From an archaeon (GTDB lineage: Archaea; Aenigmatarchaeota; Aenigmatarchaeia; CG10238-14; SCSR01), in assembly GCA_035288545.1 (NCBI GenBank), contig DATEAB010000045.1, forward strand, positions 1,329 through 65,328: a stretch of DNA of 64,000 nucleotides, written 5' to 3'. The translations under genes and the position numbers were made by a program. Under the pieces are notes generated by a model, which was given only the letters and a program-made list of their open reading frames with translations, made no database searches and was not told where the DNA came from. Positions 7,907-62,330 of the stretch are shown here, piece by piece. Every line of letters starts with the position of its first letter. Positions within the stretch are counted from its first letter, which is position 1.

Positions 7907-8218
7907 TTAAACTTTTACAAAAACATCTTTTCCTTCAATCTTCACTTCAAAGGTCTCTTGGCCTAGCCCCCAGGGAGTTTCTTTGAAGCCGTTGCCGTTC
8001 CTCACGTCGTACTTGGCTCCATGGCAGGGACAAGTGATGACGAATCCTTCCAAATCTCCGTCCGATATCGAGCATTGTTCATGAGAACAAACATCTTCAA
8101 GCGCGTAAATTTTCCCGCTGACGTTGGTAAGCATGATTTCAATTCCATTCACATCAACCTTCATCTTCCTACCTTCAGAAATCTTGTCTGTCGTCGCGAC
8201 TTTCACAAAATCTGCCAT
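7907..8218 (-). CDS. Rieske [2Fe-2S] domain protein
   Basis: 103 aa. CSHEQCS...CPCHGAKY = CxH(x15-17)CxxH Rieske cluster-binding boxes. Confidence 0.75.
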   Translation of the reverse strand: MADFVKVATTDKISEGRKMKVDVNGIEIMLTNVSGKIYALEDVCSHEQCSISDGDLEGFVITCPCHGAKYDVRNGNGFKETPWGLGQETFEVKIEGKDVFVKV

Positions 8219-8221
8219 AAA

Positions 8222-8509
8222 TTATTTCACCAATTTCTCTATTTTGTCCGCTAAATTGAAATCTTTTTCCGTCAGCCTGCCCTCGTCGTGCGTTGTCAAG
8301 TTCAGCTGCACCGTATCGTACTTGATCAGGATATCTGGATGATGATTGCTGTTTTCCGCTACAGCAGCGACTCGTGTGACGAACCACATCGCTTCAATGA
8401 AGGTTCTGAATTTGAAAACTTTCCAAATCTCTTTTCCCTTCAGCTTCCATCCTTGCAATTTTTTCAATTCTTCATTAATTTGTTTTTTTCCGTATCTCAT
8501 GAGAGCCAC
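8222..8509 (-). CDS. Pterin-4a-carbinolamine dehydratase (PCD/DCoH)
   Basis: 95 aa. FKFRTFIEAMWFVTRVAAVAENSNHHPDILIKYDTVQLNLTTHDEG matches the PCD fold signature (E...HHP...W). Confidence 0.78.
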   Translation of the reverse strand: MALMRYGKKQINEELKKLQGWKLKGKEIWKVFKFRTFIEAMWFVTRVAAVAENSNHHPDILIKYDTVQLNLTTHDEGRLTEKDFNLADKIEKLVK

Positions 8510-8615
8510 AGGTGGGAATTGAACCCACGACCTTCCGCTTACATTCCGCTCGATTTCTCGATGGGCGGGTGCTCTTTGTTGCGTTTTTTCAACGAACCAA
8601 CTGAGCTACTGTGGC
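8504..8615 (-). tRNA. tRNA with apparent insertions in the D-loop (~20 nt) and anticodon region (~19 nt); anticodon not resolved
   Basis: Minus-strand read: GCCACAG-TA-GCTCAGTTGGT[TCGTTGAAAAAACGCAACAA]AGAGC-A-CCCGCCCATCGAGAAATCGAGCGGAATGTAAGCGGA-AGGTC-GTGGGTTCAATTCCCAC-CTGTGGC-T. Acceptor, D stem, T arm and discriminator are canonical. The anticodon arm cannot be folded without removing an insert. Confidence 0.5.
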
Positions 8616-8678
8616 ATGCTGGTAATTCTATCAACAACTCTACTTTATAAATTTTGCCTTTTATTGTATTGAGGTTAA

Positions 8679-9425
8679 GTGATTAGTATGCGGGCTGAAG
8701 GCGGGAAAGGTGAGAAAAGCAAGGGGAAATTCTGCCCCAGATGCGGACGTCATGCGGAAAAGTTTTACAACAATTTGTGCAAGAACTGCTTTCCCGAAAC
8801 TATAAGTTTGGCTGAAAAATTGCCAAGCAGGTTTGCTTTGCGCCAATGCAAAAACTGCGGAAGGATTTACGTCAACGATGACTTTGGGGAAACGATTGAA
8901 GGGGCGCTTGACATATTGTTGAGGGAGCTTTTGGCAGACAAAAAAATGCAGCCGTTGCATGCGGCTAGTTATCGAATTGAAGGTCGGCTTGTGCATGTTA
9001 CGCTTGTGATGAAGGTTGACGACGTGGAGAAGATTGAGAAGAAGGATGTTGAGCTTGTCGTCAAAACCATCTTGTGCGAGCGTTGCGCACGCGAGGGAAG
9101 CGGCTACTTCCAGTCGATAATGCAGCTGCGCGCGCCGACTAAGGAACTGACGGAAGCTCTGTTTGATGATGTACAGCAGCAAATTGAACTGATGAGTCAC
9201 TACGACCAGCATGCATTTATTTCTAAAATCGAAAGAAAGAAGGAAGGACTCGACCTGTACATAGGCAGCAAGAAAGTGACGATGCAAATATCTAAAAACA
9301 TTAAAAATAAATTTAACGCTAATGTCGTCGTGTCGAGAAAACTGGCTGGAAAGAAGCAGGGGCAAAAAGTTTATAGAGACACGGTGTTAGTAAGAATAGG
9401 AGAAAAGAAAAAGGGGCGCAGGTAA
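8679..9425 (+). CDS. Nmd3-like (COG1499-type) Zn-ribbon protein
   Basis: 248 aa with four CxxC pairs (CPRCG, CKNCF, CKNCG, CERCAR) arranged as in the Nmd3 N-terminal domain. The overlapping minus-strand ORF 8661..9365 looks antisense and low-complexity. Confidence 0.42.
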   Translation: MISMRAEGGKGEKSKGKFCPRCGRHAEKFYNNLCKNCFPETISLAEKLPSRFALRQCKNCGRIYVNDDFGETIEGALDILLRELLADKKMQPLHAASYRIEGRLVHVTLVMKVDDVEKIEKKDVELVVKTILCERCAREGSGYFQSIMQLRAPTKELTEALFDDVQQQIELMSHYDQHAFISKIERKKEGLDLYIGSKKVTMQISKNIKNKFNANVVVSRKLAGKKQGQKVYRDTVLVRIGEKKKGRR

Positions 9426-18920: not shown

Positions 18921-19015
18921 TGGGTCCGCAGAGAATTGAACTCTGTTCTTCACCGTGCTCCCAATGTTTCTTCCAATGTTGTGAGGGTGACGTCCTACCG
19001 GTAGACTACGGACCC
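18921..19015 (-). tRNA. tRNA, probably Val(CAC), with a ~24-nt insertion in the anticodon loop
   Basis: Minus-strand read: GGGTCCG-TA-GTCTACCGGTAGGAC-G-TCACC-CTCACA[ACATTGGAAGAAACATTGGGAGCA]C-GGTGA-AGAA-CAGAGTTCAATTCTCTG-CGGACCC-A. The TCACC/GGTGA stem encloses a 31-nt loop. The loop begins CUCACA (anticodon CAC if the intron is at 37/38). The 5' end overlaps the stop codon of the adjacent CDS by 10 nt. Confidence 0.55.
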
Positions 19016-20298
19016 TTTGCTTTCGTTTTGTCGAATTCGCTCAAGCTGCTCTGAATTTTCATTCCTGATGATTTAATTGTTGAGCTTCCGTTGAAAATAG
19101 GCTTGCCATAAACTCCATCGTATCCGGCGACAAACTTTACGTTTCCTTCGCGGATTTTCAAAATCGAGTCGGCAATTTTCTCCTGCGTCACTTTCAGCAA
19201 TTCCTCCCGCGTCACGTTCAGCAGCACGTTGAACTCATTTCCAAACCTGTTGATCAGCTTGTCCTGCTCTTCCAAAACTTTCTTCGAATACAGCTGCTCG
19301 ACGCCGAGAGTGAAGGAAATAATTTCATAAAGAGGAAGCAGGTTCTTGAAAGGTATCGCATCCTTCGGAACAAACCCTTCCGGTCTGTCCGCAAGCTGCT
19401 CCACTCGGTTGAGCACTCCAACAGTCAGCCTTCTCTTGCATCGCGGACAAATTCCATTCAATGTTTTCGTCTGATCTGGCGCGCAGCTAAACCCGCACAC
19501 GCGGTGGCCGTCGAAATGATATTTTCCGTAGTTCGGATCTGTTTCGACTGTAAACAAAAATCTTTTTTTATCTTTCTGTTTTACAGCATCAACAAAATTT
19601 TTGTAAGTAATTTCATCTTCTTTCATTTCAAAGACATTTGCCTCTCTTCCCAAACGCCAAGGATTTGCTGAGTGCGCGTCTGAATTTGAAACAAGCGTGA
19701 TTTTGTCAAGCGCGGACAGACGCCAGTTCATCGCAGGATCGCTGGACATGCCTGTTTCAACAGAAAAAATATGTTTCGTCTGATCTTTATAACATTCCTC
19801 GAGAGAGTCGAAACCAGACTTGCTGCCAAAAACTCCAAACCAGGGTGTCCATACGTGGGCTGGTGTTATCATGATGTTGCTGTCAATGCTCATCAAAATT
19901 TCCACGAACTCAGGCGAAGTAATTTTTATCATCGGTCTTCCGTCAATTTTCAAATCAACATGCTTTCCAAGCTGGTCGTTAATCTGATCTAAAATTTCGA
20001 AAGAAGGAACGTGAAACATATGATGAACTCGATGAAGTTTTCCATTCTGCTCATAATCAGTGCTCACCTCGCCTGTGATCATCCAGAAAATTTCTCCATA
20101 TTTGTAAATTCCCGTGTCGCCAATAGGTTGCAAGTTTTCTTTTAGCTCTTTCAACCATAGAGGATGAGTGCAATCGCCTGTGCCGAGAAGATTGATTCCT
20201 TTTATCTTTGCTCCTGCCTCGAGAGTTCTGACACTGAGATATTTGCTGGTTGCGCGCGAATACTTCGAATGAATTTGAAGATCAGCAATAATCTGCAT
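19006..20298 (-). CDS. PHP-family phosphoesterase with C-terminal Zn ribbon (COG1379-like)
   Basis: 430 aa. The N-terminal MQIIADLQIHSKYS is the PHP-domain His motif. C-terminal CPRCKRRL...C(x)C gives the zinc ribbon. Architecture is typical of the archaeal COG1379 family. Confidence 0.55.
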   Translation of the reverse strand: MQIIADLQIHSKYSRATSKYLSVRTLEAGAKIKGINLLGTGDCTHPLWLKELKENLQPIGDTGIYKYGEIFWMITGEVSTDYEQNGKLHRVHHMFHVPSFEILDQINDQLGKHVDLKIDGRPMIKITSPEFVEILMSIDSNIMITPAHVWTPWFGVFGSKSGFDSLEECYKDQTKHIFSVETGMSSDPAMNWRLSALDKITLVSNSDAHSANPWRLGREANVFEMKEDEITYKNFVDAVKQKDKKRFLFTVETDPNYGKYHFDGHRVCGFSCAPDQTKTLNGICPRCKRRLTVGVLNRVEQLADRPEGFVPKDAIPFKNLLPLYEIISFTLGVEQLYSKKVLEEQDKLINRFGNEFNVLLNVTREELLKVTQEKIADSILKIREGNVKFVAGYDGVYGKPIFNGSSTIKSSGMKIQSSLSEFDKTKAKGP

Positions 20299-21989: not shown

Positions 21990-22265
21990 CAGAAGGCGCG
22001 CCGCAAGTGGATACAGACCTCCAGAGCAGTTAACCCGCATATCCTTCTCCATCATGTATCCTTCAAGCATCAAAACAACTAACTTATCCTTGCTCGGTTC
22101 CCCGCCTAGGGAGGTTCGATAATTGCCTGACCCTGTAGGGCATGACTTCTCAGTCGGAAACACGGACTGCGCTACAGGTTTTGCATCGCCTCTTGGCTTC
22201 AGTCGAGCATGTAGGCCATTTCTCGATTAAGGTGAGGCCTAGCCACCCCGCTTAGCCCTCTGCAT
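21990..22265 (-). ncRNA. GC-rich structured RNA, candidate signal recognition particle (7S) RNA
   Basis: The interval has no credible ORF and is locally GC-rich. The minus strand reads, 5' to 3': an Alu-domain-like GGUGGCUAGGCC and CCUGUAGCGCAGUCCG, then a helix-8-like CUAGGCGGGGAACCGAGCAAGGAUAAG (GGAA tetraloop plus AGCA asymmetric loop). The ends can pair (GCAGAG/CUCUGC). Strand and ends are tentative. Confidence 0.35.
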
Positions 22266-26901: not shown

Positions 26902-29900
26902 GTGGGGGTTTTGATTAATTCCATAAAAATTTTGTTCTTTATTATTTTTCTGACTGTTATCTTTATAAATTACTTTGCTTTTCCTGTTTTGGCAACAATC
27001 AGTTTGAATGTTTCAGCTTCTCTCACTACGCAGCTAAATAAAAATATAACAATCAAAGGCTCGATAGTAAATACAACTACTTCTGACACGATAGCTGGAA
27101 TAAATGTTACTGCAGTTGTGAATGGGAGTGGCGCTTCTCAAACAACAGGAGCAGACGGAACTTTTCGTTTTAACATAACCGCTCCTAACACTCCCGGAGA
27201 AAAGTTTGTTACTATCACAACAAATTCAAGTTCTCTTCGAACTGAAACAATTCCTATTTTTGCGACCAACTTGACATCAGGAAGCATTTCTTATGTAGGA
27301 AACTTCCCGCCATTTACCAACGGCTCAAACATGACAATTAATATCACTTTGTTTAATGGTACAATACCTTTCGCAAATTATTTTCCCAACGTGAGTATTT
27401 ACAAATCAAATGGAGGAAGAATCTCTTGGGGAATTTACAATTATTCGGCCAGTACTGGCACTGGTGGATTCATCACTTTCAACGTAACAATCCCTGCTAG
27501 TGCGGAAATCGGGCAGTATGCGATTGTTGTCGAGCGTGGTGCACTGTTCACAATTTTCGAGATAAGATCGAACTACATGATGGCAGTCAGCACAATGTCG
27601 ACTGCTGATGAGAGAACGTCGAATTTTGCTCCTAGCGGCACTGTGAATGTTCTTGCAAAAGTCAGGACAACAACTGGAAATCCTACCAGTGCGACAGGCA
27701 TCTCTGCGCTGATAACTCTTCCAAACGGAACTGTGCGAAATATCTCGCTCTCCGTGCATCCGACCCTTACTGGCCAGTACAACAAAACCTTCACAGAGAC
27801 GTCTGCTTCCGGGCAATATCAAGTCGCAATTTATGCAGTTGTCGCTGGCGCTCAGCTCCAAGCCAACACAGTTTTCAGCACAAAAGTTTTTGAGGTGGAT
27901 TTGGAAATGCAGAAGAAGTTCTTCATGGAATGGGGAGGTCAGGCTGCGTTCAAAGCAGGCGGCGTGGTCGCGCTTGACATCGTTCCAATTAATATGACAG
28001 ACGACACCACGATAAACGTAGGCGGGGCGGTATGGCCTGCATGCAACACAACTTATCTCAAGATGGTTGATGTCACTTATCCCAACGGAACCTCCATCAA
28101 CAGCTCCCAACCGATTGTAGGGGTGTCTTTCTCAACAAGCCAGAGCCTGACCGACAGCGTTTGCAAAATCAATTTTACAGCCCCCGCTGTTACTGGCGCT
28201 TACGGATTGAAAGTCAATGTGACGGTCGCAGGGGTGACTGAACAGGCAGAAGGATTTTTCGCAGTTCAGAAAATTTTCCTTAAAGTTTCCCCTGTTTCAG
28301 GACTGGGCGGACAAGAGGATTTCATGTCAGTAGTTTCGCCTGGAGAAAATGTGACCCTTGATATGACGGCGTATAACCTGACAACTGAAGCTCAAATCGA
28401 CGGCACAAGCATTTCAAACATAGTTGCAAAAAGAATCGTTCCTCTTGAATTTGCAACAGGCAGCTCCGAACTGACAACGCTCAATCAGTCAGCCACAACA
28501 GGGAGCAACCCGCAAATACTTGTCCAGATTCCTTCCTCGGTCATGGGGCCTGCGATTGTCGAGATAGAGGCAAGCGTTGGAACTGAGAAAGTCATCGGTA
28601 CTGCTTTCTTCATTTCCAATTATCTTTCAGGATTTCTGTTTCCCGCTTCCGGAATGGGCGGTGAAGGCGGCGGGGATTTTGGCGGCGCGCCTTTCGCCTC
28701 CTGCTCAGGCACTCTTAGCTTCAGGGGAAATGTCAACGAAGTGAAGACAGGGACGGCTGCACAAGGAGTGAGCGTTGTAAGCATCATACAGGCGCGCGAG
28801 GAACTTACAGGCCGCGATGTCAGCGGCATGCTTTCCATTGCCGGCACTACGGCAAGCGACTCGAACGGGCAGATAACCATCAACGTCACATTCAGTCCGA
28901 GCAGCGGATACGGCTTCTCAGGTTTCTATTTCATGATTTTCAACGCAAGCTACAAAGGCAATTCCGCAGGCCTGCCGGCTGGTTTCATGTGCAAGCAACT
29001 GGACTTCTGGCCGACCATTCAGGCGATAGGAACGACACAGGAGAGCTGGCGCGTGTCGCCGACATCAGGAGTCAACGTTACAATTTCAAATGTTGCCAGA
29101 CTGAACGACAGTGCGATAATAACTAACAGGAGCTATCTCACCCTTCCAACAGTTTTCAACTTCAATCCCTCAAAAGGTGGGATGAAAGTTCTTATTCCGC
29201 AAAACATTTCTGCTCTCAACGCGACTTTCGTGCAGAGAGGAAACAACTATACAGCAGTCGACTCAAACTACGTCAGTCTTGCGATTTACCCACAGAACTT
29301 CACTTCGGGCGGCCAGGCTCTCACAGAGTGGCCCAACGGTTTCCTTGATCTCCAGCCGCGCATTACGTCTGTTGATATTGACGGGGCGTCCGATACAGGT
29401 TTCGGCGGGTTCCAGGTCGTCGGCTTCGACGCATGGATTGAGGGATGGGACTGGGGAGCGAAAGGAGCAGGTCAGACTCTCTCTTATGTAGTCGACGTCA
29501 GGGCGAATGTCAGCAAGAACGTGACGAATGCAGCTGGCGAGAATGGTATTGTGCCTGACACTGTTTTCGTACGAACTTCTGCCAGCAACAACATGACAGG
29601 ATTCACTGTCAGGATCGGAAGGCCGTGGGAAGGCGAAATGACGACACTCACAGCAGTCAACGCGACTCTGCTTTCCGACGGATGGAACCATAGCAGCAAC
29701 ACGAGCTTCGAGAGGTGGAACGTGACATTTGTCATTCCGCAGACCACGAAGAAAGGAGAGGCTCAGCTTGTCATTACGGTCAACAATTCTAACGGCCAGG
29801 AAACAGACATCGACCTTTGGTTCACGATAACAAAATACACAGTTATACTTCCCTCGGAGGAAGGTCTTGGATCTCAGCCGTCCTCTCCATTCGACGCGTA

Positions 29901-31416
29901 CTACATTCCCATGGTCGACAATGGCCAGTGCAGTGGGGGATGCGGCGGCAATACCAGTGCATACGGCTGGAACATGACATACATCAATTATACGTACGGC
30001 ATAACCTCTCGCTCGACTGGATGGAACCCATCATGGGCGGGCAAAGTCTGCGTGAAGAACCAGTTCAACGTGACTAGATATGTGCAAGCCAACCAGCTCG
30101 CCATCACGATCAATAGCAGCGTGCGCGTGGCAGTGGTCGACAACCGAACCGCTGGAGTGTACGACACTGTCATACTCAACAACACCGAGGGCAACATAAC
30201 AATTTTGAACACAACAGACATCAATTCAAGGAAGTACGGCTCGAGCGCGCTCTACTTGTGGTCGATAGAGGACTGCGGATATGTGAAGTTTGTCAACGCC
30301 TCGTCAGGCGCGCTGCCTAGCTCAGGCAACTGGGGCGGCTCTCATCAAGCCAACACCAACTTCACCATTCCTTACGTAATCACTCTTGCCAACACGCCTC
30401 AAGCGTCAGTCAACGTCAGCATAAGGTCAATTGGCAAGCAGGACGACCGCGGTTTCGGATTTGAGGGCAAGATGACAGTAGGGGACACGCCAAGAGGGAA
30501 CTACACCTCTGTGCCGGTCAACGCGACGACTGATACGAACGGCATCGCGTTTGTCGGAGTGAATGTCTCGGCAAGCGGGCGCCTTGTTGCTTTCTGGAAG
30601 ATCGACACCACAGCAGGCGACACAGACATAGCCACGATGAGCAGCGCTACATTTTTCGAGTCGAAGGCTTTCAGCACGAACGGCTACAGCGTTTTCGACC
30701 TTCCGATGAGATATGTCAATCTCACTTATGTCGCAAATTCCGGAGGCGGATACCTGGGGGCGTTCGCGGCAGCAAGCGAGCCGTGGGTGTACGCTGCGAA
30801 CGTTACAGAAACGAATGCGAATGATTTTGTCCGCGACGGCACTGCTGCGACTTATTACATTGTCTATGCTCCTAACAGGAACGCCACGAAGACATCAACA
30901 TCAACAGACCTTTCCGGCTCGGCTGCTGACTACCTCAACGCCACAACCAGCATCGGTGGAACGAGTCTGGCAGTGGCATGGATGCATCCCAACTCTTCTG
31001 CGACCGGCTCTCTACAGTTCGTATTTTTCCAGACAAGTCCGCAGGGAAACAGGCCGACGACCGTCACCACAGGGACTGAAAACATAACTGTTGCGGTGTG
31101 TGGGGAAGGATATGAAAAGCCGAACGCGCGGCCGAAGGAAGGGGCTGCAGTCAGGCTGACTGTGACAGACTGGTCTGCATTCCCGCCTTCAACTAAGAAC
31201 TTGCAGATGTATGAGATGCAGAACCACACGGCCATCGCTCTGGGCAGCTCGGCAGTGACAGGACCGAAGGGATGCGCTCTCCTCAACGTCGGCCCAGGCC
31301 AGCTCAGCACGTGGCCGTCAGCAAGCGCAGGCAAGCCTCCAGTGTTCATCGAAGGAACAGTCACCTCGGGCAGCTTGGTTGAGAGCGTGTACGTCACAGA
31401 TGTTTTCAGGATTTAA
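26902..31416 (+). CDS. Giant secreted cell-surface protein (1504 aa) rich in Asn/Thr/Ser and N-glycosylation sequons
   Basis: N-terminal signal/TM MGVLINSIKILFFIIFLTVIFINYFAFPVLA. Dozens of N-x-S/T sequons (NIT, NVT, NGS, NAT...) run throughout. No C-terminal TM segment. Probable S-layer or adhesin-type glycoprotein. Confidence 0.6.
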   Translation: MGVLINSIKILFFIIFLTVIFINYFAFPVLATISLNVSASLTTQLNKNITIKGSIVNTTTSDTIAGINVTAVVNGSGASQTTGADGTFRFNITAPNTPGEKFVTITTNSSSLRTETIPIFATNLTSGSISYVGNFPPFTNGSNMTINITLFNGTIPFANYFPNVSIYKSNGGRISWGIYNYSASTGTGGFITFNVTIPASAEIGQYAIVVERGALFTIFEIRSNYMMAVSTMSTADERTSNFAPSGTVNVLAKVRTTTGNPTSATGISALITLPNGTVRNISLSVHPTLTGQYNKTFTETSASGQYQVAIYAVVAGAQLQANTVFSTKVFEVDLEMQKKFFMEWGGQAAFKAGGVVALDIVPINMTDDTTINVGGAVWPACNTTYLKMVDVTYPNGTSINSSQPIVGVSFSTSQSLTDSVCKINFTAPAVTGAYGLKVNVTVAGVTEQAEGFFAVQKIFLKVSPVSGLGGQEDFMSVVSPGENVTLDMTAYNLTTEAQIDGTSISNIVAKRIVPLEFATGSSELTTLNQSATTGSNPQILVQIPSSVMGPAIVEIEASVGTEKVIGTAFFISNYLSGFLFPASGMGGEGGGDFGGAPFASCSGTLSFRGNVNEVKTGTAAQGVSVVSIIQAREELTGRDVSGMLSIAGTTASDSNGQITINVTFSPSSGYGFSGFYFMIFNASYKGNSAGLPAGFMCKQLDFWPTIQAIGTTQESWRVSPTSGVNVTISNVARLNDSAIITNRSYLTLPTVFNFNPSKGGMKVLIPQNISALNATFVQRGNNYTAVDSNYVSLAIYPQNFTSGGQALTEWPNGFLDLQPRITSVDIDGASDTGFGGFQVVGFDAWIEGWDWGAKGAGQTLSYVVDVRANVSKNVTNAAGENGIVPDTVFVRTSASNNMTGFTVRIGRPWEGEMTTLTAVNATLLSDGWNHSSNTSFERWNVTFVIPQTTKKGEAQLVITVNNSNGQETDIDLWFTITKYTVILPSEEGLGSQPSSPFDAYYIPMVDNGQCSGGCGGNTSAYGWNMTYINYTYGITSRSTGWNPSWAGKVCVKNQFNVTRYVQANQLAITINSSVRVAVVDNRTAGVYDTVILNNTEGNITILNTTDINSRKYGSSALYLWSIEDCGYVKFVNASSGALPSSGNWGGSHQANTNFTIPYVITLANTPQASVNVSIRSIGKQDDRGFGFEGKMTVGDTPRGNYTSVPVNATTDTNGIAFVGVNVSASGRLVAFWKIDTTAGDTDIATMSSATFFESKAFSTNGYSVFDLPMRYVNLTYVANSGGGYLGAFAAASEPWVYAANVTETNANDFVRDGTAATYYIVYAPNRNATKTSTSTDLSGSAADYLNATTSIGGTSLAVAWMHPNSSATGSLQFVFFQTSPQGNRPTTVTTGTENITVAVCGEGYEKPNARPKEGAAVRLTVTDWSAFPPSTKNLQMYEMQNHTAIALGSSAVTGPKGCALLNVGPGQLSTWPSASAGKPPVFIEGTVTSGSLVESVYVTDVFRI

Positions 31417-31502
31417 AGAAAATTAAAATAAAAATTAAATAAAATTGAAAGAAAATTAAAATTGAAACAATATAAAAAAATTAAAAATAAAAAAGTGAAA
31501 AA

Positions 31503-32918
31503 ATGGCAGGAATTGCAAACGCAAACACGGCAAAAAAGAAAAGTAACTTGAAAAATAATTTCATTTGCACTCTGGCATTTGTTTCAATGGCATTTATTTC
31601 GTTTTCAATCTTGTTTTCAATCTTATTACCGCAACAAGTTTTTGCATCAGTGACAGAAGTCACGACATCAGCTTCTGCCAGCAGAGCGACGACTGGAACG
31701 AGCGTGACGATAACAGCTTCGGTAACGGCAAGTTCGACCGAAACAACTTCAGTTAATTTTGTCTCAACCCCTTCCGGGATAACAGTCAGCGATCCTGCGG
31801 GCGGTTCCTATTCCTCAGTCGCTGTGTCCACCTCTCCCACGACTAAGACATTCACAATTTCAGCTGGCAGCGCCAACACTTACACTTATTACGTGCAGGC
31901 AGGAAGCGTTCAGTCAACTTCTGCAACAATTGTTTTCGTTGATCCTTCTGCCATTGTAGTCACAGGTGATCCGAGTTCGACCACTCAAACTAGCGGCAGC
32001 GAGTTTGACATTGAAGTTAACATGGAAAATAGTCAGTCTTCCTCGGTTACAACTTCTTATTCTCTCAATCTTCCTTCAGGTTATTCCGTTACTGCAGGCG
32101 ATGCATCTTCAGATACAATAACCCTTGGGCCAAATTCTATTGTGCAGGTGGCATGGACAATAAAAGTTGGCTCTGCATCAGGAACTATTACTTTTAAAGT
32201 TGGAAGCAATTCAAACGCGTTTTCCACTTCTGTTACTTGTAGTGATTGCGTAACAACTTCTCCGTCCTCCGTAACTGCTGAATTAAAAGCAAGTGCTTCA
32301 GTAATAGGTTCACCATACAACAGAACATTCTTTTCAATCGCTGCTGAAACGATAAAACTTATTCCTGAAACAGATTTGTCAAATACCAATTCAAGGTTTA
32401 CAGAAATATCGTTTGCAGTTAAGGAAAGAGTTACAGACGTTGTATTTTTTGTACAAGGATTTGGTTATCTTGTTAAGCCGAGTGATGCCCCGTCCGTTGA
32501 TCCAGGAAAAGTTTATCGATACATAAAAATTTTAACAACTAATCTCCCTGATGAAAAAATTAAAAACGCCACAGTAAAATTCAAAGTTGAGAAAGCATGG
32601 TTTACTGAAGAAAAAGTCGATGCTTCTACAATCGCGCTTTACCGTTATGTGAATGGAAAATGGGACAAACTGTCGACAGTTAAACTGACTGAGGATGCTA
32701 ACTTTATTTACTACCGCTCTACAATTCCAGGATTTTCATATTTCACAATCGCAGGAGAAGCCCCAACAACAACAGCAACACAACCTCAAGAAACTCAAAC
32801 TACGACAACTACACTGCCGACAGGAGTAACATTTCCAAGTGAAATAATAATTGGAATAATTATAATTTTTGTAATCGTTGTTGCTGTTCTACTGTTCATG
32901 CGAAAAAATAAAAAGTAA
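31503..32918 (+). CDS. Secreted Thr/Ser-rich surface protein with C-terminal Thr-rich linker, TM helix and basic tail (archaeosortase/PGF-CTERM-like anchor architecture)
   Basis: 471 aa. N-terminal hydrophobic signal. C-terminus TTTATQPQETQTTTTTLPTGVTFPSEIIIGIIIIFVIVVAVLLFMRKNKK. Confidence 0.55.
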   Translation: MAGIANANTAKKKSNLKNNFICTLAFVSMAFISFSILFSILLPQQVFASVTEVTTSASASRATTGTSVTITASVTASSTETTSVNFVSTPSGITVSDPAGGSYSSVAVSTSPTTKTFTISAGSANTYTYYVQAGSVQSTSATIVFVDPSAIVVTGDPSSTTQTSGSEFDIEVNMENSQSSSVTTSYSLNLPSGYSVTAGDASSDTITLGPNSIVQVAWTIKVGSASGTITFKVGSNSNAFSTSVTCSDCVTTSPSSVTAELKASASVIGSPYNRTFFSIAAETIKLIPETDLSNTNSRFTEISFAVKERVTDVVFFVQGFGYLVKPSDAPSVDPGKVYRYIKILTTNLPDEKIKNATVKFKVEKAWFTEEKVDASTIALYRYVNGKWDKLSTVKLTEDANFIYYRSTIPGFSYFTIAGEAPTTTATQPQETQTTTTTLPTGVTFPSEIIIGIIIIFVIVVAVLLFMRKNKK

Positions 32919-33379: not shown

Positions 33380-33567
33380 CAAAAACTATGGATGGAGTCA
33401 GGTTTGGAAGAAGAGGTTTTGACTGGAGAAAATTGGCGTGGGCAGTTGCACTGGCGGCGTTGCTCGGTTTCATAACAGGATTATTCACAAATTTTCACGA
33501 GGTAAGTTGGGCTGTGTTTTTCATTATTTTGTATCTTGAATACAGATTGACAATGCGACGAATCTAA
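33364..33567 (+). CDS. Small membrane protein (hypothetical)
   Basis: 67 aa with two hydrophobic helices. Overlaps the previous ORF by 16 nt. Confidence 0.25.
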   Translation: MEEVVTKTMDGVRFGRRGFDWRKLAWAVALAALLGFITGLFTNFHEVSWAVFFIILYLEYRLTMRRI

Positions 33568-33616
33568 AACATTTATATAGGAAAAAACCAAAATTAATTT
33601 ATCAAATTAGAGGGTT

Positions 33617-34315
33617 TTGATGGAGAAGAAATACAAATATATTCTTAAATTAGGAGTTCCAATTGTCATAGTATTGGCATTAGTCGGTGTTGGAGGTTTC
33701 TATCTAGGTACAACTACTGTAACTACATCGCCTCTTGAAGCATCTATTTTCTCACCGCTCCATGTTGCATTTGTTTGCGTGAGTCCTGTAAGACATCCAG
33801 GCGACCCTGACTCTGTTTTGTCGCAATACGCTGATTGTTCTCACAATGTTTACACCCGTCAGGGAATGAATATGACAAGAGATTATCTCTTCCGTCCTGG
33901 GGCAGGACTACAAGGAATTAACGTGACTAGTTTGGGAGTGACTGGAAACGGAACAGCCCCAGGTCAAACAGGAACTGACAGATGCATAGCAAACGGAACT
34001 TTAGGTGCAGCTGGTTCAGGATGCAATGATTATACCAACAATGGACTGCAACCAGCAGTCGGAAGCGTCTTTGATGTTGTCGGTGGTCCAAGCGACTTCG
34101 GAAACATTTCAATTTCCAAAGTATTTACTTGCACACAATGTACAAACACTGGAATAAACGCAACTGGACTCTACAATTCGACAACAGTCACAGCAGGCGG
34201 AGCCAACTCGACCAGCGTGGGTGGTCTCAGTCTGTTTGCGGAAGCAAACTTCACATCAGCTACACTACAGACAAATGACCAGATAAACGTAACTTGGTTC
34301 GTGTGGACCCAGTAA
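33617..34315 (+). CDS. Secreted Cys- and Gly/Thr-rich protein with N-terminal signal anchor
   Basis: 232 aa. MMEKKYKYILKLGVPIVIVLALVGVGGFYLG signal anchor, multiple N-glyco sequons, 8 Cys. Confidence 0.4.
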   Translation: MMEKKYKYILKLGVPIVIVLALVGVGGFYLGTTTVTTSPLEASIFSPLHVAFVCVSPVRHPGDPDSVLSQYADCSHNVYTRQGMNMTRDYLFRPGAGLQGINVTSLGVTGNGTAPGQTGTDRCIANGTLGAAGSGCNDYTNNGLQPAVGSVFDVVGGPSDFGNISISKVFTCTQCTNTGINATGLYNSTTVTAGGANSTSVGGLSLFAEANFTSATLQTNDQINVTWFVWTQ

Positions 34316-34380
34316 TTTAAAATTTTTCTTTGAAATTTTAAAATAGTTAAATTTATTTTCTAATTTTTCCAATAAATTAC

Positions 34381-35193
34381 TTGATAATAATGCCATTTCA
34401 AAAACGTCACATTCGATGGACTAAAGGCAAAAAACTTGATAATAAATATAGAGAAAAAATTTCAATCGCAGTGAAAAAATGGAGTGAGAATAATCCAGAA
34501 AAATTTAGGGCTATTTATGAAAAACAAAAGGGAAAACCAAAACATTCTGAAGAATTCAAGAATAAAATGAGTGAAATTAAAAAAGGAAAACATCAGTCTC
34601 CAAATACAGAATTTAAGAAAGGATATCATCAACCTGTTGAATGGATAGAAAAAATGCGACAAAAAAAGTTAGGTATGCCTTCTGATAAGAAAGGGAAAAC
34701 CTATGATGAATTATACGGTAATCAAAGAGCATTAGAAATTAAAGAAAAACAAGCAGAAAGGCATAAAAATAAGAAACTTTCAGAAACTCATCGACTAGCT
34801 ATTAGCATAGCACATAAACAAAATTTTGAAAATGAGAAATTCAAGAGTCAATGGGCAGCTAGATTTCATAGAAAACCTGGACCATCAGAGAAAAAAATGA
34901 TAGAACTGATTAATTTATTTGGCCTTCCCTTCAAATATGTCGGCAATTATAAACTCTGGATTGGCAATAAAAACCCTGACTTTGTGCATACTCAAGGTAA
35001 GAATCAAGTAATCGAGTTATTTGGGGAGTATTGGCATCAAACAAAACCTAATATAAAGTACCATCAAACTACAGAAGGAACTATGGATCATTACAAAAAG
35101 GCTGGTTATAAATGTCTTATTATTTGGAGCCAAGAAATGAAGAATCCTCAACACGTCTTGCAGAAAATAAAGGCATTTTCAGAGGCAAGCTGA
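34381..35193 (+). CDS. Homing-endonuclease-like protein: NUMOD3 DNA-binding repeats fused to a Vsr-like (PD-(D/E)xK superfamily) nuclease domain
   Basis: 270 aa, K-rich, in a very AT-rich segment. At least three NUMOD3-type repeats (KGKKLDNKYREKISIAVKK; KGKPKHSEEFKNKMSEIKKGK; KNKKLSETHRLAISIAHK). C-terminal NPDFVHTQGKNQVIELFGEYWHQ matches the Vsr motif PD-v...IfvdGcFWH. Confidence 0.6.
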   Translation: MIIMPFQKRHIRWTKGKKLDNKYREKISIAVKKWSENNPEKFRAIYEKQKGKPKHSEEFKNKMSEIKKGKHQSPNTEFKKGYHQPVEWIEKMRQKKLGMPSDKKGKTYDELYGNQRALEIKEKQAERHKNKKLSETHRLAISIAHKQNFENEKFKSQWAARFHRKPGPSEKKMIELINLFGLPFKYVGNYKLWIGNKNPDFVHTQGKNQVIELFGEYWHQTKPNIKYHQTTEGTMDHYKKAGYKCLIIWSQEMKNPQHVLQKIKAFSEAS

Positions 35194-35384
35194 ACTATCT
35201 ACTTCTCTACAATAACGCTTAAAAGGCATCTTCTACAAATTAATAATATAAAACGTTGTACAACAAATTAAACAACAACATTAATCAATAACGTTAATCA
35301 ACAACATTGTCCTTTGTCCAGAAGTGGTAAGAACTGCGAGCAGCAACGTTTGAGTAAAAGTAGAAATAGCGAGCAGCATTTGGA

Positions 35385-35642
35385 ATGAACGACGAGAACC
35401 ACTTCAAGGAAAGGATAGAGGAAATTTTAGCGAAGCATCCAGAAGGTTTATCTATAGCCGAAATTTCTCGACTTCTTGGCGCGCATAGACACACAGTTAC
35501 CAAATATATCCAATTTCTAATGGGTGCTGGAGTAATTTATCAACGCGATCTCGGCACTGTGAAATTGCATTACTTAGCAAGCAAACTCCCCGAGAAAGAA
35601 AAGCTGCTTCTTGAAAAATTAAACAGGCGGGGTAAAAAATGA
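35385..35642 (+). CDS. Small winged-HTH transcriptional regulator
   Basis: 85 aa. LSIAEISRLLGAHRHTVTKYIQFLMGAGVIYQRDLGTVKLHY is an HTH plus wing. Stop overlaps the start of the giant gene (ATGA). Confidence 0.6.
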   Translation: MNDENHFKERIEEILAKHPEGLSIAEISRLLGAHRHTVTKYIQFLMGAGVIYQRDLGTVKLHYLASKLPEKEKLLLEKLNRRGKK

Positions 35643-38600
35643 AAGTTAATAAAATTATTGCTAATAGAATTATTCTTCTTGCTGCAGTCTTCATCTCATT
35701 TTCATTAATGGGAATTTTTGTTAGTTTAATTCTCTTTGCCGAACCTGCTAAAGCAGAAGTAAGAGTTTGGAGATACAATGCTACTAATGCAAGTCTTTTT
35801 TCCGTGTTTAATAAAAGTGATGATGACACGACAACTCCACCTGCTTGGACTTCAGGATGGGACGGATCAAACGTTAGTGCTAGTTATTATGCAAACGTTT
35901 TAGGTGCTCAAGGCACTGGTATTAACGTTACTTCAGGTGGTCAGAATGACGAACCTTGGGTGAGATTTAATGTAACTATCATTCAAAACAAGTCGCAAAT
36001 TGTTTGGGTGCATGTCTCATTGACGCAGAGGAAAAATTCTTTGGCAGATGGAGGCGAAGATTGCACTTATATTATGGCTAATTATACTTCCTCTGGAGGT
36101 ACGGGACAGTGGTTTAAATTTGCCTCCGATGTCACAGGCATAACAGATACACAAAGATCCTTTAATCTTTCACGTCTGACTGACTCTGATCAGTTTGAAA
36201 ATATTACGGATGGTTATGCAACAGGAAAAAATCTACAAGTCGGTAATCTTGTAATAAGAGCAAACGGTATTAATGAAGATGCTGATGAAGGATGTGTTGT
36301 TACAAACGCTAGCGTACATGTTGGATATGACGACACTGCGCCGATATGGAGCAATGCAACGAACAATTTCACGTACGCCTATCCGAGCATAAAAACTGTT
36401 GCTGCCATGAGAGGTGAACTTATTAACATTTCTGCAAACGTGACCGATAACTACGGCGTGTTTACAGCATGGCTTTTGACAAACGAAACTGGTGGAGACA
36501 GAAACTACACGTACGACCAGCTTGCAAATTCTTCAAACTACACGATAAGAATTTTGGGTGGAGGGTCGATAATAGACCAAGCTCATAACACAACTACTGA
36601 AGGTGCGATGGTTAACTGGACTTGGCAAAACATGACAGGCGCCCCACGTGCAATCAAATGGCATATTTTTGTTAACGACACAGCAAACAACACGAACGGA
36701 ACTACTAACGGCGCGAGCGGAATCGCCGATATAGGAAACTTCACGATGTGGGGATGGGCAAACGTTACTCCTCCTAACTGGCTAAGTTCACAAATGGTGC
36801 CTGCGTCTGCAACTCCAGGCAATGTAGTTTACATACAAGTCAATGTGAGTGACGTGAACTTGACATGGCTAGAGCCAATAAATAGTTACAACGTAACTTT
36901 CTTTTACCGCCAAGAACCAGGAAATTATGTTTCACTTGGAGCCAACTGGACAAATTCTTCAGGAATTGCTGGATTTTACTGGGACACTACTGGCTTGTCA
37001 GGTGGAAGATATTTCCCTATGGCAAACATAACTCACAATGCAACTCTTTTCTACAACACAACTTATGTTCACAATAGCACAAACGGGACTATCGATCTTG
37101 CGGCAGCAGCTGTTGTTAACTACGGTAATGGTACGCTTCAAGTAGGCGTCAGCTCGAGTACAGATAGAGCACAAACTGTGAAAAGAGCACCGATCATCAA
37201 TCTTGTACAGAATCCGATAACCGCCCAAATAGTTGGCCTTTTCAAGTCATTAACAAATGCAATAAACGCCCTGACAAGCATACCTGCAATTTTTGCGCCT
37301 CTAAGACTTTCAATCATATCACCAATTTTGTCCACTCCAATTTCTAACTTTTTCACACAAGTGAAATCAATAGCTCAAGCCATAACTTCAAATTTCGTTT
37401 CTTCAAATCTCGGATATATTTCAAGATCAATAGCAAACGCAATAACAACTTCTCCTTTAACTGCAAGAATAGTTTCCTTAATAAAAATTATAACATCTCC
37501 ATTTGTTTTTGCATTTCAAACCATTGCTGGAAAAGTTTTGCAATTTCAAACATCACTCACATTAAGCGTGACGTCAACCGCTTCAAGAATATTTACAGGA
37601 GTCAGACCGATATCGAATGCAATTACATTTTCTACAATAACTGCCAGAATAACGAATTTCGGCAGAAGCCTGATTAACGCGTTATCATTTAACACAATTG
37701 CAACAAGAACTGCATCGTTCTTCAGAACAATCTCTCAGCCATTTACATTTACTACTCAAGTAACGGGCGTGTTCGCGCAGGGCGTTCAAGTTATTAACAG
37801 AGCTGTGGAACTGGCACTTTCAATAACCAATACAGCAACAAGAATTTTCACAGCGGTAACATTTCCAACACAGCAGCTTTCTTTCACAACATTAGTGCAG
37901 AGAATAACATTGCTAAACAAAGCTTTAACCAACACACTTTCATTTAACGCTCTAGCAATTAGATCAGCAACGTTTCTAAGAATTGCATCTCAATCATCCA
38001 CCTTCTTAACAAACGTTACAACTGCAATAACTATACTCACGTCACGAGTTGCTACTTTAACGATTTCTATGATAAACACAGCAACAAGAATTTTCACAGC
38101 GGTAACATTTCCAACACAGCAGCTTTCTTTCACAACATTAGTGCAGAGAATAACATTGCTAAACAAAGCTTTAACTAACGCAATATCATTTAACACAATT
38201 TCTTCCAGAATTGCGATATTTTCTCGTCAAGTTTCCCAACCCTTTGTTTTCAGTTTCGATCTTTTCACTAGAGTAATTGTTGGAGGAATTGCAGAAAGAA
38301 CTGCTGCTTTGCAAATATCATTAAGTAATTCGGCATCAGCTGTTTTAACTGCAGCACGTTTTCCAACATCAGCAATAACTACAAACACAATAGTATTAAG
38401 AACGCAACTTCTTTTCAAAGCACTTTCACAAACTCTAAACTTCTCAACAATATCGGCAAGAATACTCTCAACAACGAGAACAGTCTTCACAAACTTAACA
38501 TTCTTAACTTCGAGCATTAGGACAAGAATAGTACCAAGAGTAACAACTGCAGCGATTACGTTCTCTAACGCAATTGAAAAATCATTATTATTTGTAAGAC

Positions 38601-40153
38601 CGATAACAGCGCAAATAACTTTTGCTCAAAATGCAATAAAGCAACTTTCCTTCTTTAGAACAATCACTCAAACTATTAATTTAAATGACTTGGTTATAAG
38701 AAGTCAGCCATTTTTGAGAATTGTCACAGGAACTTTCAGATTTAATTTCGGAGCAACTGCTGTAAATCAAACTGGAACCACCACTACCACAACATCCTCT
38801 GCTGGTCCAGGCCCAGCACCAAGTGCAGGCAGTGGAGCAGGCAGTGGAGCAGGCGGTGGTGCAGCCGCTGCCCCAGGAATTCCTATCTCGATACTAGCAC
38901 CACCACCGTCATTCATTCCAACCCCAACGGTTGCAATTGACTTTACACAAATAGAAGTGCTGCAGGAAGTAGTTCCGGATCAAGCTCAAAACATATCGTT
39001 TGAAATTAAGAACAAAGTCAACACGACTCTGGGCAATGTTACTGTCACTTTCAGTGGAGTGCCTGAAGATTGGATTAAAGAAAAACTTGTTGGCAAGAGT
39101 CTTAATCCAAATGAAAAAACAGAATTCGAAATCCCCGTATCGCCATCTCGAGGCACAGGGAGTGGGGATTATCGTGTGGATATTAGTGTAAAAGCCGGAG
39201 GAGTCGTCGATAAAGGATTTTTCATAATTCGTGTCAAACCTAACGCAGGAGAAACCAACGCACCTTCTGTGACAAGGTCAGTTGTGGTGAACAGTGAGGA
39301 GAAAAAGACAACCTTCACATTAAATGTTGTAAATGTGAAAGGAACAGACACAGTAGAAGTGCAAGAAGATATACCAAAAACAATTGCGAACAGCACAAAG
39401 GAAATATTTTTTGACACTCCGCCGACAAAGATAATAAAGGACGATCCGATTGTCGAATGGCAACTCAAAAATTTCAAGAAAGGAGAGAGCAGGATCATCA
39501 AATATTCTGTTCAAAAAATTTTGGTAGATTACGCCCCGTATGTTTACTTCCCATTGAAGCAATTTAGCATATCTTCCAAATCAACATTAGAAAACTTCAA
39601 GTTGCTACTGTTTGACATTCCACCCTTCTATTCGGGACATGCGTCAATTGTTACGTTAAGAATTGAAAACTCAGATTCAAAGTCCCACAACTTCAGCTTC
39701 GCAATGGGACTTCCGGAAAAATGGAGCGTACAGCCGCAGCAGATAAACGAAATTATTGGTGACAACGAGCAAAGGGAATACAAGCTCTCTGTTTATGCTC
39801 CTTCGAGCGAACCTTCTGGAATTCGCATCATTCAGGCTCAATATGCCTGGGATGATTCAGCTGTAATAAGAGAGTATAGTGTGATTGTTTCACAAATAAT
39901 TTCATTTGACACCATAATCTACATCACCATTGTAATAATTGTAGTATCGGCAGCATATTTTGCAATAAAATCCTATATATCTTATAGAGGAACTCCAATG
40001 GAAACCTTACGAAAACTGAGAGCAATAGTAAAAAGCAGGACACCGATTCATCTAGCGCCTCATGAGCATTCCAAACAATACAGTGGCATTTTTTACGACG
40101 CGCTGTATCATTCAAAACATCTGTCGAAAAACAAAAAGGAGAATAAGTTATGA
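35639..40153 (+). CDS. Giant cell-surface protein (1504 aa) with N-terminal signal/TM, N-glycosylation sequon-rich ectodomain, internal tandem repeats, Gly/Ala/Pro linker and C-terminal TM anchor
   Basis: N-terminus MKVNKIIANRIILLAAVFISFSLMGIFVSLILFAEPAKA. Degenerate ~35-40-aa repeats span about aa 520-1010, including two exact 100-nt DNA copies. Linker GPGPAPSAGSGAGSGAGGGAAAAPG. C-terminal TM IIYITIVIIVVSAAYFAIKSYI. Confidence 0.6.
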   Translation: MKVNKIIANRIILLAAVFISFSLMGIFVSLILFAEPAKAEVRVWRYNATNASLFSVFNKSDDDTTTPPAWTSGWDGSNVSASYYANVLGAQGTGINVTSGGQNDEPWVRFNVTIIQNKSQIVWVHVSLTQRKNSLADGGEDCTYIMANYTSSGGTGQWFKFASDVTGITDTQRSFNLSRLTDSDQFENITDGYATGKNLQVGNLVIRANGINEDADEGCVVTNASVHVGYDDTAPIWSNATNNFTYAYPSIKTVAAMRGELINISANVTDNYGVFTAWLLTNETGGDRNYTYDQLANSSNYTIRILGGGSIIDQAHNTTTEGAMVNWTWQNMTGAPRAIKWHIFVNDTANNTNGTTNGASGIADIGNFTMWGWANVTPPNWLSSQMVPASATPGNVVYIQVNVSDVNLTWLEPINSYNVTFFYRQEPGNYVSLGANWTNSSGIAGFYWDTTGLSGGRYFPMANITHNATLFYNTTYVHNSTNGTIDLAAAAVVNYGNGTLQVGVSSSTDRAQTVKRAPIINLVQNPITAQIVGLFKSLTNAINALTSIPAIFAPLRLSIISPILSTPISNFFTQVKSIAQAITSNFVSSNLGYISRSIANAITTSPLTARIVSLIKIITSPFVFAFQTIAGKVLQFQTSLTLSVTSTASRIFTGVRPISNAITFSTITARITNFGRSLINALSFNTIATRTASFFRTISQPFTFTTQVTGVFAQGVQVINRAVELALSITNTATRIFTAVTFPTQQLSFTTLVQRITLLNKALTNTLSFNALAIRSATFLRIASQSSTFLTNVTTAITILTSRVATLTISMINTATRIFTAVTFPTQQLSFTTLVQRITLLNKALTNAISFNTISSRIAIFSRQVSQPFVFSFDLFTRVIVGGIAERTAALQISLSNSASAVLTAARFPTSAITTNTIVLRTQLLFKALSQTLNFSTISARILSTTRTVFTNLTFLTSSIRTRIVPRVTTAAITFSNAIEKSLLFVRPITAQITFAQNAIKQLSFFRTITQTINLNDLVIRSQPFLRIVTGTFRFNFGATAVNQTGTTTTTTSSAGPGPAPSAGSGAGSGAGGGAAAAPGIPISILAPPPSFIPTPTVAIDFTQIEVLQEVVPDQAQNISFEIKNKVNTTLGNVTVTFSGVPEDWIKEKLVGKSLNPNEKTEFEIPVSPSRGTGSGDYRVDISVKAGGVVDKGFFIIRVKPNAGETNAPSVTRSVVVNSEEKKTTFTLNVVNVKGTDTVEVQEDIPKTIANSTKEIFFDTPPTKIIKDDPIVEWQLKNFKKGESRIIKYSVQKILVDYAPYVYFPLKQFSISSKSTLENFKLLLFDIPPFYSGHASIVTLRIENSDSKSHNFSFAMGLPEKWSVQPQQINEIIGDNEQREYKLSVYAPSSEPSGIRIIQAQYAWDDSAVIREYSVIVSQIISFDTIIYITIVIIVVSAAYFAIKSYISYRGTPMETLRKLRAIVKSRTPIHLAPHEHSKQYSGIFYDALYHSKHLSKNKKENKL
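37200..38700 (+). repeat. Intragenic tandem repeat array (degenerate ~105-125-nt units; two 100-nt copies identical at 37829 and 38078)
   Basis: The string aatacagcaacaagaattttcacagcggtaacatttccaacacagcagctttctttcacaacattagtgcagagaataacattgctaaacaaagctttaac occurs twice, 249 nt apart. Flanking units share the protein pattern ...T(A/I)(T/S)RI..F.R.(I/V)SQPF.F... Confidence 0.7.
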
Positions 40154-62209: not shown

Positions 62210-62330
62210 AGTCCCGTCGTCTAGTGGCCAAGGACATGAGGCTTTGGACTTTTGGTCACAAAGCTCTGATTGCGAGATGAAGCAGAAAGGAAGATCCCTC
62301 AAAACGTCGGTTCGAATCCGGCCGGGACTA
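62210..62330 (+). tRNA. tRNA-Gln(TTG) with a ~47-nt insertion in the anticodon loop
   Basis: AGTCCCG-TC-GTCTAGTGGCCAAGGAC-A-TGAGG-CTTTGGA-[47 nt]-CCTCA-AAAC-GTCGGTTCGAATCCGGC-CGGGACT-A. Perfect anticodon stem TGAGG/CCTCA. The loop CUUUGGA is the canonical Gln(UUG) loop. Confidence 0.65.

Follow-up and report, generated by a model that had tools for sequence, protein, structure and literature searches.

Dassa et al. (2009) described putative homing endonucleases with a Vsr-like nuclease, two of them with tandem NUMOD3 modules N-terminal to that domain, together with free-standing members of the group (PMC2677866); the combination of NUMOD3 modules and a Vsr-like nuclease has been known since that report. 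The activity of I-Bth0305I was subsequently proven, and its structure solved, by Taylor et al. (2011), who named the EDxHD family and placed Hef in the Vsr-like family (PMC3239194), and a 2025 paper has pointed to a 'large unrecognized outgroup' of homing endonuclease genes of the EDxHD/Vsr type (PMC12350094). Here we describe a gene in a 64,000-nucleotide stretch of archaeal DNA (contig DATEAB010000045.1; hereafter the window) whose product is predicted to join NUMOD3-like DNA-binding modules to a nuclease of this type. The coding sequence occupies 34390..35193 on the forward strand and encodes 267 amino acids (aa) plus a stop; the deposited record, HLC39880.1, calls the product 'hypothetical protein VJJ76_03290 [archaeon]' and gives it 267 aa. 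We consider it fairly likely that this is a long-resident selfish gene for a site-specific Vsr-like ('EDxHD') homing-type endonuclease, with exchange of alleles and occasional loss or decay.

The protein resembles I-Bth0305I and the EDxHD enzymes in having a modular N-terminal DNA-binding region in front of a C-terminal Vsr-like nuclease, in its conserved Glu, Asp and His residues and in the lack of zinc ligands. It differs from I-Bth0305I in that the latter has two NUMOD2/HTH (helix-turn-helix) motifs and is located in a group I intron of phage recA; the variable 'x' position of the active site is Phe here, the final Asp is matched at best by a Glu that is offset by one or two positions, and the window domain is only about 20% identical to 3r3p, the solved I-Bth0305I domain. 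The examples of 2009 split DNA-metabolism genes at split inteins, whereas the window gene splits nothing. Like the free-standing homing endonuclease genes of phages (T4 Seg/Mob, Hef), it is intergenic and self-contained, varies in presence between relatives and has mosaic flanks, but the characterised phage genes are mostly of the GIY-YIG or HNH type and are found in phages, while the window gene is part of a cellular archaeal chromosome and its slot has been held over deep divergence. It has the same predicted fold as Vsr itself (PF03852; 1vsr, 1cw0), with E25/E167, D51/D197 and W68-H69/W215-H216 as corresponding residues, yet it has no zinc site, no His64 and no neighbouring methyltransferase partner, and it carries an added NUMOD3 array. 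The fold is also that of DUF559 (PF04480; 3hrl), to which many relatives have weak matches (below), but the window protein itself has no DUF559 match and its motif is spaced ELFGxYWH, where that of DUF559 is presumably ExDGxxH. In its repeated N-terminal DNA-binding modules and its membership of a mostly unannotated branch it recalls the CapR-like plus EDxHD/Vsr-like genes of phage group II introns (PMC12350094), although those are CapR-like and intron-borne and the window gene is NUMOD3-like and free-standing. Distinctive here is the setting: an intergenic slot in the surface-protein region of a cellular archaeal chromosome, held over deep divergence, with all stages of the life cycle to be seen in close relatives. 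Our findings leave the current understanding of the enzyme mechanism unchanged; they assign a predicted function to a 'hypothetical' protein and to a very large family whose members mostly lack annotation.

The nuclease domain and its DNA-binding modules

The maximal open reading frame (ORF) spans 34381-35193 (+) and would give 270 aa from a TTG at 34381. The ATG at 34390 is the likely start because the deposited annotation has 267 aa and orthologues begin MPRGIYQ...; residue numbers below refer to the 267-aa form unless the 270-aa form is stated.

Searches with the single protein were silent on its C-terminal domain: Pfam returned nothing for the C-terminus, with no match to Vsr (PF03852) or DUF559 (PF04480), NCBIfam and PDB sequence searches gave nothing useful, and PHROGs gave weak 'homing endonuclease' matches to the protein. 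A family profile was therefore needed. A homologue search yielded 51 relatives, all metagenome-derived; the domain profile was an alignment of the C-terminal ~110 aa of 41 sequences and the wider family alignment held 45. Glu, Pro-Asp, His and Trp are invariant across the 41 domains, and IELFGxYWH is nearly so. When compared with the PDB, the profile found the catalytic domain of I-Bth0305I first (3r3p, E 3.2e-7), followed by E. coli Vsr (E 5.3e-5 to 2.5e-4; 1cw0 at 5.3e-5) and the DUF559 protein 3hrl (E 0.057). Scanned singly in Pfam, 22 of the 41 relatives matched DUF559 (weakly; best E 1e-8), 7 matched Vsr and 6 matched MTES_1575. An AlphaFold2 model built from the family alignment (mean pLDDT 88) has eight helices followed by an alpha-beta-beta-beta-alpha-beta-alpha core, for which Foldseek ranked 3r3p first in the PDB (probability 1.0, template modelling score 0.73-0.75); 3hrl was fourth in the list (the second distinct structure after 3r3p) and 1vsr was close. 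The top matches in a viral structure library were phage proteins with the same two-part layout, under names as varied as 'DNA mismatch endonuclease', 'DUF559', 'homing endonuclease' and 'C2H2 zinc finger'.

Profile and predicted structure thus identify the C-terminal ~108 aa (residues 160-267; 34867..35190, +) as a Vsr-like, EDxHD-type nuclease domain. The original prediction, made from the DNA alone, had proposed NUMOD3-type repeats followed by a Vsr/PD-(D/E)xK core on the strength of the motifs NPDFV and VIELFGEYWH. Both motifs are present as it described (34972-34986 and 35008-35037), the 41-sequence profile and the predicted fold support the core even though Pfam does not detect it from the single protein, and the closest solved structure is the domain of a proven homing endonuclease, I-Bth0305I. 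The profile comparison that it suggested was fruitful in part: the domain profile matches Vsr and 3r3p and a NUMOD3 unit is seen, but PF03852 itself gives no match and PF07460 only a sub-threshold one.

The active site of I-Bth0305I consists of E170, D196, N208, H213 and D222, equivalent to E25, D51, H64, H69 and D97 of Vsr (PMC3239194). Glu167 (codon 34888..34890, +) aligns with E170 and Vsr E25; Asp197 of the 'PD' motif (34978..34980, +) aligns with D196 and with Vsr D51, a Mg2+ ligand; and His216 of the 'WH' motif (35035..35037, +) aligns with Vsr H69 and with H213, the proposed general base. All three are invariant across the 45-sequence family alignment. Glu209 of IELFG (35014..35016, +) is kept in at least 90% of the family and aligns with E206 in the 'IEVNG' of I-Bth0305I. 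All four residues are retained in every close homologue that covers them, including every intact copy confirmed at the slot described below. The variable 'x' of EDxHD is F211 here, at the position of His64 in Vsr, and E229, a candidate for the last acidic residue, is conserved in the close clade and replaced by Asp in P0009. The Vsr zinc ligands, which we take to be Cys66, His71, Cys73 and Cys117 (E. coli numbering), have no Cys or His counterparts in the alignment, the motif there being ...GEYWHQTKPN....

In the N-terminal part, Pfam recognises one NUMOD3 (PF07460) unit, at residues 54-75 of the 270-aa form, with 19.2 bits (E 1.2e-3) and short of the gathering score of 20.4. A hidden Markov model (HMM) built from the NUMOD3 units of family members found three units, scoring 15.5, 22.9 and 14.7 bits, whereas none of 200 shuffled versions of the N-terminus scored above 4.9; the score of the first is inflated, since its own orthologues were in the training set. 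Unit 1 is degenerate (KGKKLDNKYREKISIAVKKW; 34423..34497, +, aa 12-36; 15.5 bits), unit 2 is the one detected by Pfam (KGKPKHSEEFKNKMSEIKKGKHQSP; 34528..34605, +, about aa 47-72; 22.9 bits) and unit 3 (KKLSETHRLAISIAHKQ...; 34771..34839, +, aa 128-150; 14.7 bits) coincides with a predicted helix at 132-145. The Lys-rich NUMOD3 repeats that had been claimed are thus recovered as three NUMOD3-like units, one of them near the Pfam threshold. Pfam NUMOD3 matches (E <= 0.01) occur in 27 of the 45 family members, the best with an E value of 1.4e-33, and in other relatives HTH_23/HTH_28, zinc-ribbon or C2H2-like leaders replace NUMOD3. A variant of the window protein from read set SRR3989344 (P0001) has an in-frame deletion of 29 aa (window 34474-34560) that removes KKWSENNPEKFRAIYEKQKGKPKHSEEFK, including parts of units 1 and 2, and is flanked by short AAAATG microhomologies; no contig carrying this variant was found.

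Occupancy, loss and allele turnover at the slot

The gene order around the endonuclease gene is a 115-aa membrane protein, a 67-aa protein, a 232-aa secreted Cys-rich protein, the endonuclease, an 85-aa HTH protein, a 1504-aa surface protein, a 416-aa protein, ParA and the pilus genes. The original prediction had located the gene between the surface-protein cluster and the pilus operon; it is in fact inside the cluster, between the 232-aa gene and the operon of the HTH and giant surface proteins, and the ParA and T2SSE (pilus) genes begin only at 41.5 kb. On the left, the gene is bounded by an AT-rich spacer (34316..34389; GC 0.11) that separates it from the 232-aa gene, probably holds its own promoter and marks the left edge of the presence/absence polymorphism. 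The downstream intergenic region (35194..35384) is the right edge and contains a conserved element resembling a promoter and operator.

This slot is filled in no fewer than six related lineages of archaea, referred to here by the contigs that represent them: the window species, L001/L037 (contigs of 838-840 kb), L003/L032, L035, L148 and L129-L131. The order in L148 is a 208-aa ORF, the endonuclease and a PqqD-like gene. In L129-L131, the slot holds a C2H2 plus NUMOD3-like plus nuclease protein with a nuclease domain 36% identical to that of the window and a CoA (coenzyme A) ligase that is 61% identical; a neighbour-joining tree built from the ~100-aa domain lacks the strength to distinguish orthology from separate invasion for the L129 copy. 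The closer lineages share 72-84% identity in their flanking housekeeping genes and 54-71% in their endonucleases, with up to 83% in the nuclease domain. The ratio of nonsynonymous to synonymous change (dN/dS) in the endonuclease gene is 0.05-0.24 and the gene is under purifying selection. Among ten contigs of the window's own species, taken from several samples, every one that covers the slot carries an identical 267-aa gene.

An empty site was found in L033 and L141, two independent assemblies of one lineage. Beyond the end of the 232-aa gene, these alleles have ~115 bp of unrelated DNA in place of the AT-rich spacer and then continue directly into the conserved promoter region and the HTH gene. 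The genes on either side are complete and adjoin each other, and neither short-word blastn nor inspection of six-frame translations by eye revealed an endonuclease remnant. Decay is seen in L036, where only the last ~70 codons are left, carrying a frameshift and, in conserved motifs, replacements of Gly by Asp and by Glu. Over its flanks L036 matches L035, in which the gene is intact (310 aa), at 92-100% identity, and the two differ by a 790-bp deletion and a replaced block inside the 232-aa gene. Within that gene (L035 1470-1990 against L036 3975-4489) identity drops to 45-67%, compared with 92-100% around it, so a block was replaced by recombination beside the endonuclease gene; the recombination tract that separates L035 from L036 extends from within the 232-aa gene into the endonuclease gene. 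In the related 474-kb contig L038, the whole surface-protein/endonuclease cluster is missing before ParA, and the N-terminal part of the 115-aa membrane protein is found joined to another protein, of 372 aa (7959-9077).

The alleles themselves are mosaic. The close homologues combine two types of N-terminal module, an optional CxxC...HxxxH leader and two C-terminal subtypes in varied ways. Judged by their flanks, L003 and L035/L036 are the closest pair (CoA ligase 83%, PqqD-like protein 93%, 115-aa protein 74%), yet the endonucleases of L003 and L035 are the least similar pair (54% overall), with the larger distance extending to the nuclease domain.

The composition of the gene is distinctive in every host examined. 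In the window its GC content is 0.32, compared with 0.435 for the window as a whole, and its third-position GC content (GC3) of 0.246 is the lowest among 17 genes measured; nearby surface-protein genes are moderately low (0.30-0.43). The endonuclease GC3 is 0.25 in the window, 0.30 in L001, 0.22 in L003 and 0.23 in L035, against 0.30-0.58, 0.52-0.75, 0.33-0.47 and 0.32-0.44, respectively, in the flanking genes. Long vertical inheritance (dS > 1) leads one to expect a drift of GC3 to the host value, most clearly in L001. The foreign composition noted earlier is thus seen in each host examined, although the AT-rich 'island' in which the gene was said to lie is the gene itself.

The endonuclease gene stands by itself between its neighbours and does not form part of an intron, intein or transposon: an Rfam search of 33500-36000 returned nothing even at an E value of 1, and the empty-site allele has both neighbouring genes undamaged. 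The same search showed no remnant of an intron or other RNA, and neither target-site duplications nor terminal inverted repeats bracket the gene, the only repeats being short, AT-rich chance ones. A free-standing mobile gene, as the original prediction proposed, accords with the empty site, the pseudogene remnant, the mosaic alleles and the incongruent similarities in related genomes. A recent insertion does not, as the same slot is filled in at least six lineages, between which the housekeeping neighbours share only 61-77% identity (61% for the CoA ligase of one of them). The conserved synteny that was to speak against mobility is present, and the signs of mobility are present nevertheless.

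A probable resident homing-type endonuclease and rival readings

In the reading that we favour, the Lys-rich, all-helical N-terminal ~155 aa with its three NUMOD3-like helices would lie along a long stretch of DNA and so extend the footprint of the protein, while E167, D197, E209, H216 and probably E229 would hold Mg2+ and activate water in the Vsr-like core. Mg2+-dependent cleavage, with D197 as a metal ligand and H216 as the general base, would follow the pattern of the named family, and the protein probably cuts as a homodimer through its nuclease domains, by analogy with I-Bth0305I. Homing would begin with a cut near the slot in an allele that lacks the gene, and recombinational repair would then copy the gene in; both this step and its target site are extrapolated from known homing enzymes. 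Selection would keep the gene intact, alleles would be exchanged between lineages at the same slot, and deletion or decay would occur from time to time. The empty allele offers a concrete substrate for finding the cleavage site.

Several points weigh against this reading. Cleavage, transfer and a target near the slot are predictions by analogy. Occupancy across at least six lineages fits stable vertical inheritance, possibly with a host function, as well as it fits homing, and the contigs of the window species that cover the slot carry the same gene without exception. The incongruent similarities could stem from a high rate of recombination in the surface-protein region, where the 232-aa gene is also mosaic, and the low GC3 could reflect a constraint specific to the gene. 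The final Asp of EDxHD (D222/D97) aligns one residue off E229, in a gap-rich and uncertain part of the alignment, and tblastn against GenBank phages gave no match.

The main alternative is a domesticated nuclease, a former homing endonuclease that is kept for a host role tied to the neighbouring surface-protein genes. It might cut DNA and thereby stimulate the exchange of alleles of the hypervariable 232-aa and giant proteins, or it might be a DNA-binding regulator of the operon. Long retention beside the same genes in at least six lineages, purifying selection with the catalytic residues kept, identity on every sampled slot-covering contig of the window species and the L035/L036 tract that spans the 232-aa gene and the endonuclease gene are all in keeping with such a role. 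We nevertheless think it unlikely. The clean empty site, with intact flanks and promoter, and the decayed copy in a close relative imply that the endonuclease gene is dispensable; its composition has not drifted to that of the host in any lineage; and members of the family elsewhere are found in unrelated contexts (beside a Y-family-polymerase-like gene in Nitrososphaerota and among phage genes), with no conserved partner gene across the family.

In phages, nuclease genes have been proposed to occupy boundaries of genetic exchange. An endonuclease that cuts beside hypervariable surface-protein genes could likewise bound and stimulate the exchange of alleles among related small-genome archaea, a suggestion that we make with considerable doubt. 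If true, it would provide an archaeal chromosomal counterpart of the phage idea and would explain the occupation of the slot over deep divergence.

A role in defence, in which a DUF559/Vsr-like restriction-type nuclease would cut invading DNA and the NUMOD3 repeats would recognise foreign sequence, is suggested by the DUF559 and MTES_1575 restriction-endonuclease-like families, which are the nearest Pfam neighbours of the relatives, and by the variable region in which the gene is located. It is improbable: PADLOC has no match for the protein or its upstream neighbours, with weak Csa3/CARF-HTH matches to the HTH neighbour alone; no methyltransferase or other partner is present among the immediate neighbours (none among ten neighbouring proteins in Pfam, a search that covers the neighbourhood and not the whole genome); the family is abundant in viral contigs, in some of them in multiple copies; and the nearest solved relative is a homing enzyme. 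A true Vsr repair enzyme that nicks the T:G mismatches left by deamination of 5-methylcytosine is scarcely credible in spite of the profile match to E. coli Vsr and the conserved equivalents of E25, D51, W68 and H69, given the absence of a Pfam Vsr match to the protein, a best match to I-Bth0305I instead, Phe211 in place of His64 and no counterparts of the zinc ligands, an N-terminal NUMOD3 array that is typical of homing enzymes (PMC2677866) and no cytosine methyltransferase adjoining the gene among the ten neighbours.

The wider family and the neighbourhood of the slot

Vsr-type homing endonucleases had been called rare, and our searches indicate otherwise: the nuclease domain alone retrieves 7,603 clusters at 50% identity (3,498 at E <= 1e-10), most of them of 130-530 aa with the nuclease domain at the C-terminus. 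Among GTDB species representatives there are 28 loci, none more than 49% identical to the window domain, distributed over Nitrososphaerota (five), Nanoarchaeota, Pacearchaeota, Micrarchaeota, Methanosarcinales, Thermoplasmata and an Asgard archaeon as well as Chloroflexota, Patescibacteria, Caldisericales (three copies in one metagenome-assembled genome), WOR-3 and further groups. The Nitrososphaerota loci mostly share one context, adjoining a gene that, judged by eye from its sequence, resembles those of Y-family DNA polymerases. IMG/VR viral contigs contain 94 relatives, with several copies on some contigs, and the viral neighbours sampled included genes for a major head protein and for the large subunit of ribonucleotide reductase, as well as a methyltransferase-like gene in two parts, which are typical settings for homing endonuclease genes. 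In the last of these (L064 3765-7417; IMG/VR contig 3300008517_000034) the relative is located between ORFs that match the N-terminal (23-251) and C-terminal (319-423) parts of the DNA-methyltransferase-like phrog_13242, a layout reminiscent of the 'fractured gene' described by Dassa et al. in 2009 (PMC2677866). The family has a patchy distribution over the phyla of archaea and bacteria and is frequent in viral contigs. Vsr-like homing endonucleases prove to be common, rather than rare, among uncultivated archaea and small-genome bacteria and in their viruses.

The element downstream of the gene (...ACAAYAACGCTTAAAAG...CACAAAT...TAYAACGTTGTA...TGTCC; window 35205-35330) is better conserved than the nearby genes. 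It was aligned across five lineages and is found at L001 10770-10900, at L003 7850-7960, in L035/L036, at 1855-1945 in the empty-site allele L033 and at 4868-4945 in the distant L129, with its CoA ligase of 61% identity. It is probably an archaeal promoter (TATA-like CTTAAAAG) with a palindromic operator that serves the HTH/giant-surface-protein operon. The window copy has ~40 bp more than those of the other lineages, with a 15-nt direct repeat (35268-35308). We considered the palindrome TACAACGTTGTA as a cleavage target and found it unlikely, because it is intact in gene-bearing alleles and less perfect in the empty allele, a pattern opposite to that expected of a homing site; a role as operator or promoter for the next operon is more likely.

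The 232-aa secreted Cys-rich protein upstream (33617-34315) has a hypervariable centre, in which lineages share 36-66% identity, while its C-terminus, LFAEANFTSATLQTNDQINVTWF, is conserved. The 85-aa HTH protein has further homologues just upstream of other giant surface-protein genes, in some cases in tandem (L139 2116-2867, L142 1272-2074, L133-L138), and the HTH gene with its giant partner resembles a module that these genomes use repeatedly. The part of the window from 26902 to 32918, which separates the CoA ligase gene from the cluster, contains a further ORF of 1504 aa with a higher GC content (0.50) and one of 471 aa. L001 and L003 have neither ORF there, which makes this part an insertion or a variable segment. 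A tblastn search of the whole window with the downstream 1504-aa ORF (35639-40153) showed no similarity to its namesake, and their equal length appears to be a coincidence.

Further from the slot, an archaeal signal recognition particle RNA at 21990-22262 (-) marks the window as archaeal. Two tRNA matches, of 112 nt at 8504-8615 (-) and 121 nt at 62210-62330 (+), are found by Rfam and missed by ARAGORN; at this length they probably carry archaeal introns. The ORF at 19006-20298 (-) encodes 430 aa, while its orthologue in L001 (5-2398) encodes 797 aa and has faint intein and LAGLIDADG matches in Pfam, which looks like a presence/absence polymorphism of an intein within the same group of genomes.

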